A stretch of 64,000 bases of DNA from a virus. A model generated the notes under the pieces. That model was not told the origin of the DNA and made no database searches. It saw nothing but the letters and a program-made list of their open reading frames with translations. The stretch spans positions 77,055 through 141,054 of the IMG/VR virus record IMGVR_UViG_3300010334_000030. One strand, 5' to 3'. Made by a program: the position numbers and the translations under genes. This document shows, one piece after another, positions 5,208 to 64,000 of this stretch; within the stretch, counting starts at the first letter, position 1; every line of letters starts with the position of its first letter.

Positions 5208-7229
5208 TTATCCTGGGAAATACCATCCTCTTCTGGCAGAAGTTCCCCCCACTGTGTATTGATAAGGATTTGCTATAGTGCTTTGCCCTAGCCCCATCCA
5301 GTCGACGGCTGTGTATTTTGGCCCAGTTGTTCCAGGAAACCAAGAAGCAGAGTTATCAGTAATAAGAACTTTAACAAGATAAAATCCATTGGTCACACCA
5401 TATGGGTTAGGATTACCCGTTTTAGTATTAAATACATAATCCTCATAGATTGAAAATTTCACGCCTTGAACATACCAACAAGCAGGCTCCTCAGCACTAA
5501 CAGTTGAGGCATAAGCGGTTTCTCTCCATTGGTATTCCGGAGCAGCAGTGGCTCCAAAATAATATTTAAGATTAATCCCTCCGGTAACACCATAACCATT
5601 TGGAGCTGTAGTGGCAAGCTTAGAATTAATAATATCAACAAATCCACCAGTGACTCCGTGAGGAGGTACACCCATATTCGTCGGTCTGTTATTAGCATAC
5701 ATTAAATTTCCATCATAAGAATTTCCAGTAGCACCTGAAGCCCCGATGGTAATAGTAACTGCTCTTACTGTCTGGGGAGTAAAGCTACGAGAATTGTTAA
5801 AATAAAACGTAAAAGTTAAAATAATATCAGACTGAGCCCACTTTCCGGATGGTAAAACTCCGCCCATTCTGAATGGTAGTTTACTGTAGTATCCAACACT
5901 TGTATCGAGTCGCGACTCACCACCATTTAGCAAAAGAGTAGCAGCAGGGGTTAAACGAGTAGTTGTTGATTCATATCCTCTGGATGTTAGACAAGCAAAG
6001 CTTGTATCATTTATGTAATTGGTTATTGCATAATTTGACCAATATCTGTTAGTATTCGGGGTGTTATCTTCCCGATAATAGGGATCAAGCGGAATTTGAT
6101 TGTTAGTATCCGCATAATAAAACTTATACCCCAAAACACTACTATAAATATCACCAGGGTACATGTAATTTCCCACAGAATATCTAGATAGTCCTGAAAT
6201 GTTAAAAGGGGATACTGATAAATCGGTTGCATCATAACCAAAATCGCTATTGTTCCATTGGTATATAGTCAATTTGATCAAGCCAGAACCACTATAAGGC
6301 TCTAAAGTAGTTAGAATGGACCCAGAAGAAATCGTCTGTCCGGTAAGCATACCTGGGGTAAGACCAGGATAACTAAATTCGAAAAATGGACTGTAATAAT
6401 AAATAGGTTCTCCCTGAGAATGAAAGGATAGGTTTGACATACCAGATCCGCCCGGTTGAAGAAGATTTACACATATAATAGGACCATTTCCGCCCAGTCC
6501 AACGTTAGTTGTAGATACAAAATCATAAGGATCAACAACAGCTGATAAAAATCTTTGCGTCTTATGTGGCGTTGTGCTATTTGCAGCTGGATAGTCTGCT
6601 AGATTTAAAAAGTCTGTGATCCCACTTTTGTTGTACGTGACACTGGTTGATGCACTATAAAGATTTCCTGTCGGGCTCGTTACAGTAAGAATAGCTGATG
6701 CAGTATATGGCGAATAAGTCGATCCAGATTCAGAGCCTGTTAGATCTCCCCAGTCGAAAATGTTTTTTGTTACTGATATGTTCTGTTTAGATGTTCCTGT
6801 AAATCCCACAGCTCCACCAGTTCCAGGTATTAAAAACTGATAATAATAAGACCCTGTAGCAGAACTCCTGATTGTGCCAGTAGCCTGGAATTTTACATTT
6901 TGACTCATATCGACAACATTGGAAGGAGATCCTATAGGAGCACCTGCTGTTGTAAGGGTAATTATAGAGAGGTTTTCAATTTCAGATACAACGGAAACGT
7001 AAGAGGGAATAAAAATTGTATCGGTTGCTCCAATAGAATCTGTTGCTGTCAATCCTGCTCCGTATCCAGATGGGTTCTTTACAATATATCTTGTCGTAAT
7101 GTTTGGAGAACTTCCAGTTGACGGTGATCCCCCAGGCAGATTCCACGTTCTAGTAACCACAGTTCCTGGGGTAGTGTCATAGTAGTAAATGTAATCTCCT
7201 TGAACTATATAAACTTTATTGTATGCCAT
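5208..7229 (-). CDS. PKD-domain virion adhesin / fibre-like protein
   Basis: N-terminal TWNLPGGSPSTGSSPN...Y...LTATDSIG PKD-type pattern; Thr/Gly-rich; AATATATA motif upstream. Confidence 0.55.
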   Translation of the reverse strand: MAYNKVYIVQGDYIYYYDTTPGTVVTRTWNLPGGSPSTGSSPNITTRYIVKNPSGYGAGLTATDSIGATDTIFIPSYVSVVSEIENLSIITLTTAGAPIGSPSNVVDMSQNVKFQATGTIRSSATGSYYYQFLIPGTGGAVGFTGTSKQNISVTKNIFDWGDLTGSESGSTYSPYTASAILTVTSPTGNLYSASTSVTYNKSGITDFLNLADYPAANSTTPHKTQRFLSAVVDPYDFVSTTNVGLGGNGPIICVNLLQPGGSGMSNLSFHSQGEPIYYYSPFFEFSYPGLTPGMLTGQTISSGSILTTLEPYSGSGLIKLTIYQWNNSDFGYDATDLSVSPFNISGLSRYSVGNYMYPGDIYSSVLGYKFYYADTNNQIPLDPYYREDNTPNTNRYWSNYAITNYINDTSFACLTSRGYESTTTRLTPAATLLLNGGESRLDTSVGYYSKLPFRMGGVLPSGKWAQSDIILTFTFYFNNSRSFTPQTVRAVTITIGASGATGNSYDGNLMYANNRPTNMGVPPHGVTGGFVDIINSKLATTAPNGYGVTGGINLKYYFGATAAPEYQWRETAYASTVSAEEPACWYVQGVKFSIYEDYVFNTKTGNPNPYGVTNGFYLVKVLITDNSASWFPGTTGPKYTAVDWMGLGQSTIANPYQYTVGGTSARRGWYFPG

Positions 7230-26567: not shown

Positions 26568-26585
26568 AAAAAAAAATTAAATTAA

Positions 26586-29654: not shown

Positions 29655-30293
29655 TTATTCTTCTACTTCTTTTTGTTCTTTCTCTGAATCCTCATTAATC
29701 TTAGATTTTTTTCCGGAGTCAGAATAATAAGATTTTTTAACAGAATCAGCTAATGATTTTTTTATGTTATTAATATCTATCCCATCTAAGACAAAATCAA
29801 TAATTTCCTTTTCTGCCTCTTCAAAAGATAAAAGAAGAACATTGTATAAATCCTTCGGAGGAAGATTCAATTTTATCTTAATCGAAACCTCAACCATATT
29901 CTTTTTCTGCTTTCTTAACAACTTATATATCGGAGATTCAGGATTGAGATCACCAGTCTCCTCGTAAACTATAGAGGTAACTGCAGACTCTTTTATAATA
30001 TCTCTTTGTTGAATTGGTTGTTCTTTTACTATAGGAGCAGCAGGAAACATTAGCATGTATTCTTCAACTAGATCAATGTTAATTTTTCTCCCACTTTGGA
30101 AGTCAATAAAAATGAAATCACCATTATTTGAAATACCCTTGTATCTTTCTACAGCAGGCACGTTTTCACCCTTTATCCACTCAAAATCATAAGGTGAATA
30201 CTGATCTTGATACTCTTTAATTGTTTTCTGAGGAGATTCCATTTTTTTATTTTTTTTTATTGTCCCAAATAGGGACTTGAATAAGTTCCCCAT
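29655..30293 (-). CDS. Hypothetical protein
   Basis: 212-aa ORF abutting both neighbours. Confidence 0.65.
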   Translation of the reverse strand: MGNLFKSLFGTIKKNKKMESPQKTIKEYQDQYSPYDFEWIKGENVPAVERYKGISNNGDFIFIDFQSGRKINIDLVEEYMLMFPAAPIVKEQPIQQRDIIKESAVTSIVYEETGDLNPESPIYKLLRKQKKNMVEVSIKIKLNLPPKDLYNVLLLSFEEAEKEIIDFVLDGIDINNIKKSLADSVKKSYYSDSGKKSKINEDSEKEQKEVEE

Positions 30294-57947: not shown

Positions 57948-59576
57948 TTATATTGCACCCGCATCCATAGAGGCTAGATCATCTCCGCCTTCTGCGCCTT
58001 CCCCTGCAGCTTCAGCTTGTTTAGCAATCTTCTCAGCTTCTTTCTCGTCTTTCTTTTTATATTTTTCATTAAGTCTAATAAGATCAGGGTTAAGACCTAA
58101 GAATCTTTCGATCAAAAATCCATTATCGAAATAAGGAACCTCTGCCTCACCCATTTTAGTTTTAAGCTCTCCTAACCCAGTAATAAATTCAGTTCTTTTC
58201 TGGTATGTAGCCATCTGAACCTGCTCGTTAAAAGGATTATCCCTATGATATTTCAATCCTAAATTTGTTTTAAAACTTTTATCTTTAGCAAGTTCAGGAT
58301 ACTTTAAACACATTTGTATATACAACGGCTTAACTAATATCTCCTGAAAAATTGATCTTAATCTAGTTAAGAATTTTTCAAATCTAATTTCATCTCTTTC
58401 TAGCCCATCTATACTTACAGAATAGTTAACAGGGGTTGCACCTCTAGAAGCAAATCTAGCATAAGGAATCTTAGAATCCATCTTGAGTTTGTTAAAGAAA
58501 TAGAGAACGTTTTCCATAACGTTAAAATCAGGACCCGATGCATTTAAAGATTCGATAGTTGGAGATTGACCATTCTGTTCAGGAAAAAGATAGTTTTTGT
58601 AAAATTGGATTTTAGGTTTTCCGTTAACTGTCATTTCTCCAGAATTCTCATTAATTGAAATATCCTCCTTATAGTTATTCATTAATTGACCAAGGGTTTG
58701 CATTGCCTTCTGTGGAGATTGACTTCCGGTAGGTATAATGAATTTAAGTCTAAATGAGGCGTTCATAACATTCCAGATAACTCTAGAGTTTTCCATTATT
58801 CTTAGAATATTATAGGATCTCACTAATCTTTCAAGATAGCTTATTCTAGAAATCGAATTACCCTTAGCATAAGAGATGTAAATAATCTGCTCATTTGTAA
58901 GTTTCCTAGTCATCTGTGGGTTTTTTGGATATTGAATCCAAAACTGTTTATATTCACTTTCACTTATCTTCTCCACAGCAGGTTGGAGTGATGTTGGATC
59001 TAATTCTTTAAACCCTATAATCTCCTTACCCTGGTTATCGTAAATTATCTCAAAAGCAAGAAATCCATCCACTAGAAACTGCTTGAAAAATTGCCAAGCA
59101 AGTATAGTGTTTTGGAATCCAAAAACGTTATAAAGTCTATTATAATTATTTGTAATCTCATCTCTCATCTTATCTTTTAGACCATCGAGATTTGCAAAAG
59201 ACGGCGAGGCAAAGAAATTACGCTCGGTATAACTTATACACTCATCAGTTACCGTGTCAAGAATAAATTCAATTTCTCCATTCAAAGAAAACTTTCTTAG
59301 AAAATTTCTTTTCTCAAGATAGTCCTTATCATAATAAGCAATATATTTTCTAACCCTAGTATCTTGATAGGATAAAGTCCAATAAAAAGCATCATTCTCA
59401 GTAAATCCAGTTCCAGATTGATTAAAGAAGGCAGATTCGGTTTTACCAACGGCTTGTGAATTTCTCACCACCATATCATCATACTCCATTCCCAGCTTTG
59501 AGATCTTTCCGAGATTTCGAATAATGTTTCCTAGAGCCGATTGACTCGGTTTAAATCCGTCTAAAAATCCTGCCAT
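57948..59576 (-). CDS. Portal protein (T4 gp20-like), paralog B
   Basis: FLVDG, SYLERL.R.YN.LR.ME...VIW, YF..KL.....IP..R, RDEIRF.KF..RLR..F. Confidence 0.9.
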   Translation of the reverse strand: MAGFLDGFKPSQSALGNIIRNLGKISKLGMEYDDMVVRNSQAVGKTESAFFNQSGTGFTENDAFYWTLSYQDTRVRKYIAYYDKDYLEKRNFLRKFSLNGEIEFILDTVTDECISYTERNFFASPSFANLDGLKDKMRDEITNNYNRLYNVFGFQNTILAWQFFKQFLVDGFLAFEIIYDNQGKEIIGFKELDPTSLQPAVEKISESEYKQFWIQYPKNPQMTRKLTNEQIIYISYAKGNSISRISYLERLVRSYNILRIMENSRVIWNVMNASFRLKFIIPTGSQSPQKAMQTLGQLMNNYKEDISINENSGEMTVNGKPKIQFYKNYLFPEQNGQSPTIESLNASGPDFNVMENVLYFFNKLKMDSKIPYARFASRGATPVNYSVSIDGLERDEIRFEKFLTRLRSIFQEILVKPLYIQMCLKYPELAKDKSFKTNLGLKYHRDNPFNEQVQMATYQKRTEFITGLGELKTKMGEAEVPYFDNGFLIERFLGLNPDLIRLNEKYKKKDEKEAEKIAKQAEAAGEGAEGGDDLASMDAGAI

Positions 59577-59585
59577 TTTTTATTT

Positions 59586-61280
59586 TTATATTACTGAGGT
59601 GTCCTCTGCTCCTGCTTCCGCTTCTCCACCTTCTTCCGCTTCTGCTCCAGCTTCTGCTTCCCCCTCTTCACCTTCCCCACCTTCTTTTCCTTCTTTTTTT
59701 GCTTTTTTATCTTCCTCTTTTTTCTTTTTCTTTGCCTCTTCTTCTTTCTCTTTCTTTTTTCTTTCCACCGCTTCTTTATTAGCTGCTATATCTTGCTGTG
59801 ACATTCCTAGAAAATTTTCAACAAGGAAAGAAACAGAAAAATAAGGCTTTTCTGCATCTTCCATTAGTGCAGACATAGCGGTAATTGATTCTTTTCTTTT
59901 CCCTAGCATTTCAATTTCTTGATTCACTCTAAATGGGCTATCCGAAAAATACTCAAGACCTAGCTGACTCTTAAATGCAAAATCGTCAGCCAGCTTTGGA
60001 TGTTTCTTAACCATCTGGATCCAAAGAGGCTTAATGAGAACCTCCTGAAAAGTTGATCTTAACCTTGATATAAATTTGGAAAATCTTATTTCCTCCTTGT
60101 CTAAGCCTTCCGCTGCATTGACGTATGTAGAAGTATTTCCACCGTCTGGACCGTGAAATCTAGAAGCTGGTATTTTAGACTCCTGAGAAAATTTATCATA
60201 GAAATAATTTAAAGGCGTTGTGTCATTTAAATTTGGTCCATCAATAGTAATAGGTTCAATGGTTGGTGTTCCAGTGCTGCTCTGGGGCATTAAATAATTC
60301 TTATAGAATTGTATTCTCGGTCTTCCATCCATTAAGAGCTCCCCTGTATCATCGTTGAATTGAACATCTTCCTTATAAATACTCATAAGCTCACCTAATG
60401 TCTGCATTCCTTTTTGTTGAGATCTAGTCCCTATAGGAACTGTCATTTTAAGCTTATACGAAGAATTCATAACAGACCAAATAACCCTAGTGTGTTCTAT
60501 AATTCTAAGAATATTATACGGTCTTATTAGTCTTTCAATATAGCTTATTCTTGAGATCGAATTACCCTTTGCATAGGATATGTAAATAATCTGAGGATCA
60601 TAAAGAACTCTTCTTTTTCTAGGGTCTTGTGGAAATTGTGTCCATGTGCTCAGAAAAGTTCCATCAGGCTGTTTCTCTACACTAGGAACTATTGTTATTG
60701 GATCGATCTCTTTAAAACCTATAATCTCTTTACCCTGGTTATCGTAAATTATCTCAAAAGCAAGAAATCCATCAATTAAGAATTGTCTAAAATATTGCCA
60801 TGCAGTTATATCGTCATTAAATCCCCAGATCTCATATATTCTTTTATATGAATCATAAAGATCCTCTTTTAATTTTTCATTAATATCTGTCAAATCTATT
60901 AAATCAGGATATGCGAAATAATTAAAAGGATCATATGTTACTGACTCGTCACAAAGAATATCTAAAACCCATTCAACCTCAGGATTAAGCGAGAATTTTC
61001 TAAGATAGTCTCTTTTTCCTTTATAATCCTTATCAAAGTAAGATACAAACTGTTTTGTTGAAATATCCTGTTTAGCTAAGGTCCATAACATACCTTCGTC
61101 TTCAACGTTTGACTTATTCTTATTAAGGAAAGAAGCCTCCGTTGCACCCACCGCCTGAGAGTTTCTGATAACCATGTCATCATACTTCATCCCAAAGGTG
61201 CTAAGCTTTTTTAGGGAATCCCTTATTCTTTGAATAACCGGGGATTGTGAAGGTCCGCTATTGTCTGTAAAACCAGCCAT
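59586..61280 (-). CDS. Portal protein (T4 gp20-like), paralog A
   Basis: Same motifs as paralog B; longer K/E/G/A tail; GATATATA at 61339-61346. Confidence 0.9.
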   Translation of the reverse strand: MAGFTDNSGPSQSPVIQRIRDSLKKLSTFGMKYDDMVIRNSQAVGATEASFLNKNKSNVEDEGMLWTLAKQDISTKQFVSYFDKDYKGKRDYLRKFSLNPEVEWVLDILCDESVTYDPFNYFAYPDLIDLTDINEKLKEDLYDSYKRIYEIWGFNDDITAWQYFRQFLIDGFLAFEIIYDNQGKEIIGFKEIDPITIVPSVEKQPDGTFLSTWTQFPQDPRKRRVLYDPQIIYISYAKGNSISRISYIERLIRPYNILRIIEHTRVIWSVMNSSYKLKMTVPIGTRSQQKGMQTLGELMSIYKEDVQFNDDTGELLMDGRPRIQFYKNYLMPQSSTGTPTIEPITIDGPNLNDTTPLNYFYDKFSQESKIPASRFHGPDGGNTSTYVNAAEGLDKEEIRFSKFISRLRSTFQEVLIKPLWIQMVKKHPKLADDFAFKSQLGLEYFSDSPFRVNQEIEMLGKRKESITAMSALMEDAEKPYFSVSFLVENFLGMSQQDIAANKEAVERKKKEKEEEAKKKKKEEDKKAKKEGKEGGEGEEGEAEAGAEAEEGGEAEAGAEDTSVI

Positions 61281-62889: not shown

Positions 62890-63054
62890 TTATTTTGATT
62901 CTTCTGGTTCAGAATCATCTTCGCTTCCTGGTAATTTATCCTTTCCTGTAGGGGCTTTACTTAATTTACCTGCTGTTGGATCTACGAATTTTTTACCTGG
63001 TTTATTCTGATCTTCCGCTTTGGGTGCAAAGTAGAAATGTCTAGTTGCAGTTAC
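62890..63054 (-). CDS. -1-frame extension (54 aa) of the 63051-64000 protein
   Basis: VTATRHFYFAPKAEDQNKPGKKFVDPTAGKLSKAPTGKDKLPGSEDDSEPEESK*; has no ATG; continues the upstream repeat motif. Confidence 0.7.
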   Translation of the reverse strand, partial: VTATRHFYFAPKAEDQNKPGKKFVDPTAGKLSKAPTGKDKLPGSEDDSEPEESK

Positions 63055-64000
63055 TTTTTTTTTAAATCCTCAGATTCTGCTAGGTTGTATCCAAGATCTT
63101 TAGAAGCTTTAAAATCTACATTTCCATCTTTACCTGGGGCAGAAACTAAACCTTGTCTCTTAGCAATTCCAGAAACTACGCTATTTGTTTCTTTTGCTTT
63201 CTTTCCGTGATCCGGAGCAGAAATTAAAGAATTCATCAAAGTAGGTCTGTTTGTTTCTCCCGCGTGCTTCCCGCTCTTAGGTGCGTGCGATAAATTATTA
63301 GCTGTTGTTCCCTTTGTTTGTGAAGCTTGCTTTCCGTTTTCTGGAGAGTGAGCTAATGTTTTATTTTTAGTAGTTCCGCTAGTTTGATTAACTTTAGAAC
63401 CTCCATTTGGTGTTTTAGCATAATTAGTACCTGTGGTTTTACCCTCTGCTATATTATAGCCAATTTCGTATTTATTTCCTGCAGCATCTTCACCATCAAA
63501 ATCTACATCACCTTCTTTACCTGGAGCATCTCTTAAAAGGTTTTTTCCTTGCTCTTTTCCTTTAACCATTTTAGAGCTTCCTGGTGCAGTTGCTAGATTC
63601 TTCTTGTTTGCATCTTTACCTTTAGCCATTTTATCATCTCCTGGGGCTTTAACTAATTGTCCATTCTTATATTGAGATTGTATTTTCTTAACAGCTTCGT
63701 TCATTGTTAAATTATAACCATGAAATCCGTCTAAGCCCATATCTATTTCTCCGTGCTCTCCTTTCGGTGCACTAGCGAAAGAATGATTAGTTGCAAGGGT
63801 CTTTAAAATTTTCTTTTGCTCCTCTATACTTAATTTACTCTTATTAAGAGTATTGATCTTCATTGATTCCTTCATTTCTTCTTCTCCGTCCTCGTCGCTA
63901 TCAGAATTCTGAGATTCTTCGTTATCGTTAGCTGCTTGATTTAAAGCGCTATCTAAATCAACAATCTCATTTACTAAATATTCTGAAGTTTTCCCGCTAT
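63051..64000 (-). CDS. Partial CDS (starts beyond the window): putative prohead core/internal protein with L-x-x-AP repeats
   Basis: The frame stays open upstream of the tracked ATG at 63875 to the window end (SGKTSEYLVNEIVDLD...); repeats LVKAPG, LATAPG, LRDAPG, LSHAP, LISAP, LVSAPG. Confidence 0.75.
   Translation of the reverse strand, partial: SGKTSEYLVNEIVDLDSALNQAANDNEESQNSDSDEDGEEEMKESMKINTLNKSKLSIEEQKKILKTLATNHSFASAPKGEHGEIDMGLDGFHGYNLTMNEAVKKIQSQYKNGQLVKAPGDDKMAKGKDANKKNLATAPGSSKMVKGKEQGKNLLRDAPGKEGDVDFDGEDAAGNKYEIGYNIAEGKTTGTNYAKTPNGGSKVNQTSGTTKNKTLAHSPENGKQASQTKGTTANNLSHAPKSGKHAGETNRPTLMNSLISAPDHGKKAKETNSVVSGIAKRQGLVSAPGKDGNVDFKASKDLGYNLAESEDLKKK

Follow-up and report, generated by a model that had tools for sequence, protein, structure and literature searches.

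At the end of a 141-kb viral contig from IMG/VR, the last 64 kb of which (64,000 nt) are hereafter the window, a gene on the minus strand very probably undergoes programmed recoding at a run of nine A residues (A9) that closes its main reading frame. The run, the stop codon beside it and an open reading frame in the -1 frame are conserved among relatives, and the arrangement is probably best understood as a maintained recoding site that gives a short and a long form of one protein, with slippage of RNA polymerase as the main mechanism.

The terminus of the gene reads GAT TTA AAA AAA AAG TAA. The window holds only its 3' part, and the full-length product of the main open reading frame (P0003) has 931 aa, of which roughly the first 640 are structured and the remainder forms a disordered tail of repeated hydrophobic-x-x-A-P motifs. 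The features of the locus, listed from upstream to downstream in window coordinates, are as follows.

63051–64000, minus strand: 3' part of the main open reading frame in the 0 frame, cut by the contig end; it finishes ..EDLKKK and then TAA
63070–63072, minus strand: -1-frame stop codon TGA, 6 nt before the A9 run; 5' limit of the shift window
63055–63063, minus strand: the A9 run, putative slippage or shift site; A9 or A10 is kept in 70 related contigs
63051–63053, minus strand: 0-frame stop codon TAA, 1 nt past the A9 run
62890–63054, minus strand: -1-frame extension, 54 sense codons and the stop codon TAA at 62890–62892; no start codon
62839–62871, minus strand: hairpin of 14 pairs with a T run, resembling an intrinsic terminator, downstream of the extension; present also in L002
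62410–62769, minus strand: gene for a gp55-like late sigma factor, the downstream neighbour

An earlier note on this DNA had described three in-register slippery heptamers in the gene terminus (T_TTA_AAA, A_AAA_AAA and A_AAA_AAG), a -1 frame open for 54 codons to the TAA at 62890–62892 without any ATG, a continuation of the protein's own motif in that frame and a terminator that follows only after the extension. The sequence bears out each of these points. All three heptamers are present; the extension begins at GTA (63054) and in the window's copy contains neither ATG nor GTG nor TTG; and the hairpin with its T run lies beyond the extension. The predicted peptide contains ..RHFYFAPK.. and ..GKLSKAPTGK.. 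and then an acidic tail, and its FYFAPK and LSKAPT are two further copies of the hydrophobic-x-x-A-P motif that is repeated in the upstream tail. Because the -1 frame is closed by a TGA only 6 nt 5' of the run, the change of frame must occur on the run itself, and either mechanism, a slip of the polymerase or of the ribosome, would yield the identical long protein ..LKKK-VTATRHFYF... Readthrough of the stop codon as the source of a long form is ruled out, since the extension lies outside the 0 frame. A separate translation start within the extension was also rejected, given the lack of ATG, GTG and TTG in the window copy and the lack of conservation of those ATGs that occur in relatives.

A search for homologues returned 95 proteins of 720–990 aa, nearly all of which finish ..LKKK or ..LKKN, and we compared 80 related IMG/VR loci drawn from more than 60 metagenomes, 70 of them belonging to the main clade. 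All 70 main-clade loci, which represent 48 distinct site sequences, have A9 or A10 at the 3' end of the open reading frame. The run is A9 at 37 of the distinct sites and A10 at the other 11, according to codon phase, and it is never shorter, with no A7 or A8 among them. An in-register slippery heptamer was found at all loci examined. At 46 of the 48 sites the conserved extension falls in the -1 frame, which is closed upstream of the run most often at a distance of 6 nt (range, -1 to 36 across the 48 sites). The slippery site, the stop codon and the -1 open reading frame are thus conserved across relatives, and with its recurrence in 70 related contigs the layout goes well past what chance would give; the earlier note had held that homologues without the site, or a -1 frame that is not conserved, would speak against its reading, and we found neither.

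The 0-frame stop codon lies 0–3 nt past the run at 45 of the 48 distinct sites (~94%). The -1-frame residues that overlap it vary (S, D, G or T), and the first codon of the extension is always NTA and the second always begins with A or G, whatever the residue. On this pattern, the stop beside the run is maintained by selection at the nucleotide level. The run itself is, by the same kind of comparison, held at synonymous sites; the chance that all three free synonymous sites would be A is 0.26 per lineage.

Within the fast-evolving and length-variable disordered tail, the extension is the best-conserved part. Its consensus comprises RNFYFAPK, QNKPG, GKLSKAP(T/D)GK and an acidic tail, with RNFYFAP nearly invariant, and in the shortest members of the family it provides two of the three A-P motifs. 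Differences among the 48 sequences number 19703, 15101 and 32524 at codon positions 1, 2 and 3, respectively, so that the third position dominates; by this measure the extension is coding sequence under purifying selection. The -1 open reading frame is 50–56 codons long in the main clade and 80–82 codons long in a distant clade.

The closest relative, at 85% identity, has the identical TTA AAA AAA AAG TAA and many synonymous changes in the extension, and differs from the window by an in-frame 6 nt directly after the stop codon. The gene copy of this relative (L002, on the same contig as L003; IMGVR_UViG_3300009184_000053) is divided into open reading frames of 254 and 668 aa by a TAG at locus positions 1915–1917, in the codon of a tryptophan that is invariant in 35 homologues. 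A database protein nearly identical to the L002 product (P0002) has Trp at that codon, and the TAG is either a nonsense mutation or a sequencing error.

The members of the distant clade (L075–L082), which share about 30% identity in the N-terminal domain, also have A9-G-TAA. Their extension is a different one, of 80–82 residues with ..GIGNxL..LKELETSS.., probably helical, and its stop codon shares bases with the gp55-like start codon (TAATG). Outside this set, the region had no match at the nucleotide level among cultured and deposited phages, and a tblastn search with two homologues matched only one distant uncultured phage of 462 kb, whose 631-aa homologue lacks both the run and the disordered tail. 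A tblastn search of IMG/VR with the extension alone, a query that is too short, gave no match.

Runs of this length are otherwise kept out of coding sequence. The A9 run at the gene end is the only A or T run of at least 9 within a gene in the 141-kb genome, where the open reading frames other than this one hold 14 runs of A8. In two complete relatives (348 and 434 kb), 14 of the 14 other runs of A9 or longer are non-coding, located at stop codons, in leaders and at terminators. The remaining runs of at least 9 in the window's genome lie at window positions 26568–26576 (plus strand, A9) and 30250–30258 (plus strand, T9) and at genome position 24645, outside the window; all are intergenic, being placed between two minus-strand open reading frames, in the leader before an ATG or upstream of a gene start. 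Many of the A9+ runs of the relatives start with the A's of a TAA stop codon or form terminator tails.

The mechanism, the isoform ratio and the existence of both proteins are what we infer from these conserved features. Standard decoding would stop just past the A9 run, and the resulting short form of 931 aa would end in ..LKKK. In some expression events an additional A would effectively be read, which would move translation into the -1 frame; the 54 residues added there would make a long form of 985 aa that carries the two best-conserved copies of the A-P motif and an acidic C-terminus. The conservation of the run, the stop codon and the -1 open reading frame strongly supports the earlier claim of two isoforms, a short one ending ..LKKK and a long one with an acidic C-terminus, produced by a net -1 change. 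That note had preferred a ribosomal shift and listed transcriptional slippage as the alternative, and it is the alternative that fits better. The RNA:DNA hybrid of bacterial RNA polymerase measures 9–10 bp. Bacterial RNA polymerase is documented to slip efficiently on runs of 9 A or T (PMC5009743). In the proposed sequence of events, the gp55-like late sigma factor of the phage would direct the host RNA polymerase, which would stutter on the T9 template, the length of which equals that of the hybrid; an extra A would enter some of the mRNAs, which would then be translated normally, and the run itself would set the ratio of the isoforms.

A classical programmed -1 ribosomal frameshift on A_AAA_AAA or A_AAA_AAG, possibly aided by the stop codon, would produce the same long form and is a possible, if rather unlikely, alternative. 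A_AAA_AAG is the -1 site of dnaX and of IS elements, in-register heptamers occur at every locus, and the adjacent 0-frame stop, kept although the overlapping -1-frame residues change, is unneeded for slippage and recalls the "shifty stop" stimulation of ribosomal shifting. The kept stop could equally reflect selection for the exact C-terminus of the short form, ..(D/E)(L/V)KK(K/N), and two loci (L040 and L041) have no directly adjacent stop. The base that is ribosomally optimal after the run is G, as in the window, but most lineages have C instead, which makes the last heptamer A_AAA_AAC. Moreover, about 100 equivalent in-frame heptamers (A_AAA_AAN) are tolerated elsewhere in the open reading frames of the 141-kb genome. 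A single heptamer would suffice for the ribosome, yet no lineage has its run cut to 7 or 8 A's, which supports slippage of the polymerase.

Signals that commonly assist the ribosome at such sites were sought on both sides of the run. The hairpin proposed in the earlier note as a possible stimulator just downstream of the shift site can be traced in the letters of the window, whereas its stimulatory role did not hold up: the structure is unstable and unconserved, and it sits on the 6-nt insert that is unique to the window and missing from the nearest relative. The 60 nt downstream of the run have a minimum free energy of -6.4 kcal/mol and fold no better than shuffled sequences (z = +0.24), and RNAalifold detected no consensus structure upstream or downstream of the run across the 48 sites. 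A stimulatory hairpin was rejected on these grounds. Nor was a conserved upstream element resembling a Shine–Dalgarno sequence found; the GAGGA of the window is replaced by GACGA, GAAGA and the like in relatives. Taken together, the lack of a conserved downstream hairpin, pseudoknot or upstream element, the run length that is always 9 or 10, the C that usually follows the run and the census of other runs favour slippage of RNA polymerase over a ribosomal shift. Every run of at least 9 necessarily holds in-register heptamers, so a ribosomal -1 shift may contribute.

Changes in the DNA itself were also considered. Homopolymer runs are hypermutable, and under phase variation replication slippage would alter the length of the run so that some genomes encode the long form directly. 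One contig has such an arrangement: in L086 (ENA contig NODE_80331, 1.5 kb, coverage 1.7), A10 at positions 850–870 sets the extension in frame (..DDLKKKLSRNFYF..). The same contig has a frame break upstream of the A10; with that break and its low coverage, errors are likely, and the contig carries too many of them to be weighed. Its A10 may reflect an error of sequencing, a variant in the DNA or an origin from RNA. In none of the 70 IMG/VR assemblies is the extension brought in frame through the length of the run, and the lineages in which it is fused in frame differ by other changes, which makes phase variation a very improbable account of the locus. That the window, a single metagenomic assembly, contains a homopolymer error in one continuous open reading frame, or a dead 3' remnant left by a recent frameshift, is excluded for practical purposes by the comparative conservation, with the same out-of-frame layout in more than 60 independent metagenomes, A9 or A10 by codon phase, purifying selection on the extension and maintenance of the layout across clades at 30% identity.

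A few lineages depart from the common layout, and two have the extension fused in frame. In the L047/P0098 lineage (L047, L048, L054 and L074; dozens of contigs, up to 338 kb) the A9 run is kept, so that a slip would here give a short form, ending ..KKKPQS. In the P0091 lineage the run is broken to AAAAGAAAAG. These DNA variants, one with the run kept and one with it broken, we count for slippage of the polymerase. One fused entry was present among the 96 proteins of the homologue search, and two more were recovered by searching with the extension itself. On a quick IQ-TREE maximum-likelihood tree with a midpoint root, the variant layouts nest within clades that require the shift, from which the recoding layout looks ancestral and the fused forms look to have arisen at least twice. 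Three loci (L050–L052, positions ~5290–5530) have another arrangement: the main open reading frame finishes with TAA TAA, and the extension is located in a separate small open reading frame, which starts at an ATG about 20 nt downstream and has the A9 run in frame inside it.

The gene lies upstream of genes for the gp55-like sigma factor, a gp4-like head-closure protein, a member of the gp2 family and the portal. Downstream of this gene cluster, at window positions 57948–61280, are tandem open reading frames of 542 and 564 aa, the former of which matched the PHROG portal family. The major capsid protein most closely resembles its counterparts in Lak megaphages and in phages of Tenacibaculum, Chryseobacterium and Flavobacterium, and these affinities make a host among the Bacteroidota likely. 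Of 14 relatives examined (L003–L078; locus position ~2470), 13 have a GATATATA motif between -30 and -32 relative to the ATG, and the gene appears to be a late one. A second AATATATA or GATATATA often occurs about 30 nt further upstream of the first motif. The leaders between motif and ATG are A-rich, with runs up to A9.

In the AlphaFold model of the protein (35 homologues), the N-terminal part is helical and the middle is rich in beta structure; a long coiled-coil hairpin and a small SH3-like domain are also present, and the chain is disordered from about residue 640 to the end. Searches of PHROGs and Pfam placed the protein in no family, the only similarity being a sub-threshold match to the SH3-like MSSS; a profile search of the PDB gave no match, and Foldseek against the PDB gave nothing below E 0.001. 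The sole VIA-align match was the coiled-coil hairpin (residues 494–572). Matches in BFVD are uncharacterised phage proteins, including those of Tenacibaculum phages PTm1 and pT24, and those in the ESM Atlas are unnamed viral clusters, so that no library searched provided a function. In P0098, a member of the lineage with the in-frame fusion, residues 122–172 form a PG_binding_1 domain (E = 1.4e-13) inserted in the N-terminal helical region, a hint of contact between the protein and the cell wall. Together with this peptidoglycan-binding domain, the late-type promoter motif and the neighbouring head-completion genes suggest a virion-associated protein, possibly one that is ejected. If so, a constant minority of the protein molecules would bear a docking peptide at the C-terminus.

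For this group of uncultured giant phages the locus adds a deeply conserved and comparatively well-documented recoding event, and in these phages gene callers cut the protein short. The family amounts to a natural experiment, with the extension out of frame, in frame with the run kept, in frame with the run broken, in a separate gene or replaced by another extension module. This variety of layouts makes it a good system for studying why a fixed ratio of short to long form is selected and how polymerase and ribosomal slippage compare outside E. coli. A much broader reading, which we consider distinctly doubtful, is that giant T4-like phages with hosts of the Bacteroidota type use A9 or A10 with an adjacent stop as a general "fixed-ratio isoform" signal that needs no RNA structure. 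The host polymerase, under the gp55-like late sigma factor of the phage, would read this signal, which would be old and kept through swaps of the C-terminal module and would be used in several unrelated late genes. Should phage factors set or tune the frequency of the slip, this would be a phage-controlled transcriptional recoding system and not a passive slippery site.

Among known systems, the frameshift sites of E. coli dnaX and of the IS3 family share with the window the same in-register A_AAA_AAG heptamer and the net -1 change. E. coli dnaX and the IS3 cassettes need a downstream stem-loop or pseudoknot, and dnaX also an upstream element resembling a Shine–Dalgarno sequence, whereas the phage site has no conserved stem-loop, pseudoknot or element of that kind. 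The frameshift of the lambda G/GT-type tail assembly chaperones, reportedly described by Xu, Hendrix and Duda in 2004 (see also PMC5009743), is likewise a conserved phage recoding event, from which a late protein results in short and extended versions at a fixed ratio. The G/GT product, however, is a small chaperone encoded between the tail tube and tape measure genes, while the protein described here has 931 aa and its gene has gp55-like sigma, gp4-like head-closure, gp2 and portal genes as neighbours; the signal here is a homopolymer and not a heptamer with context.

Systems based on slippage of the polymerase are closer. Programmed transcriptional slippage sites include those of Thermus dnaX, tssM, Shigella spa13 and IS elements. 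In Thermus thermophilus, RNA polymerase slips on a run of 9 in dnaX to give the tau and gamma forms (PMC5009743). The phage site resembles this system in its run of nine, in needing no stimulatory structure, in the two predicted isoforms with a common N-terminus and in the quick closure of the other frames. The Thermus protein is unrelated, and there the 0-frame product is the long form and slippage truncates it, whereas slippage at the phage site would extend the protein, the fused lineage excepted. In Citrobacter rodentium tssM1 and Yersinia pseudotuberculosis tssM3, transcriptional frameshifting occurs on a poly-A run with about 20–25% slippage (PMC4256274). There too, a poly-A run before a premature stop leads to two length variants of a large protein, and out-of-frame versions, in which the slip gives the long form, exist beside in-frame versions, in which it gives the short form, mirroring the majority layout and the L047/P0098 lineage, respectively. 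The tssM site differs in having A11 and a stop 28 nt downstream, in belonging to a bacterial secretion gene and in being rare among tssM genes, while the putative phage site has A9 or A10 with an adjacent stop, belongs to a late gene and occurs in nearly the whole family. Three hallmarks of slippage sites can be recognised at this locus: a homopolymer of roughly nine or more where the two frames meet (A9 at 37 and A10 at 11 of 48 sites), a conserved open reading frame that is reached in the alternative frame by one inserted base, and avoidance of such runs elsewhere in the coding sequence of the genome and of two relatives. Poly-A recoding that yields two isoforms is known from these precedents, and what is new, as judged by this comparison, is the conserved example provided by this gene.
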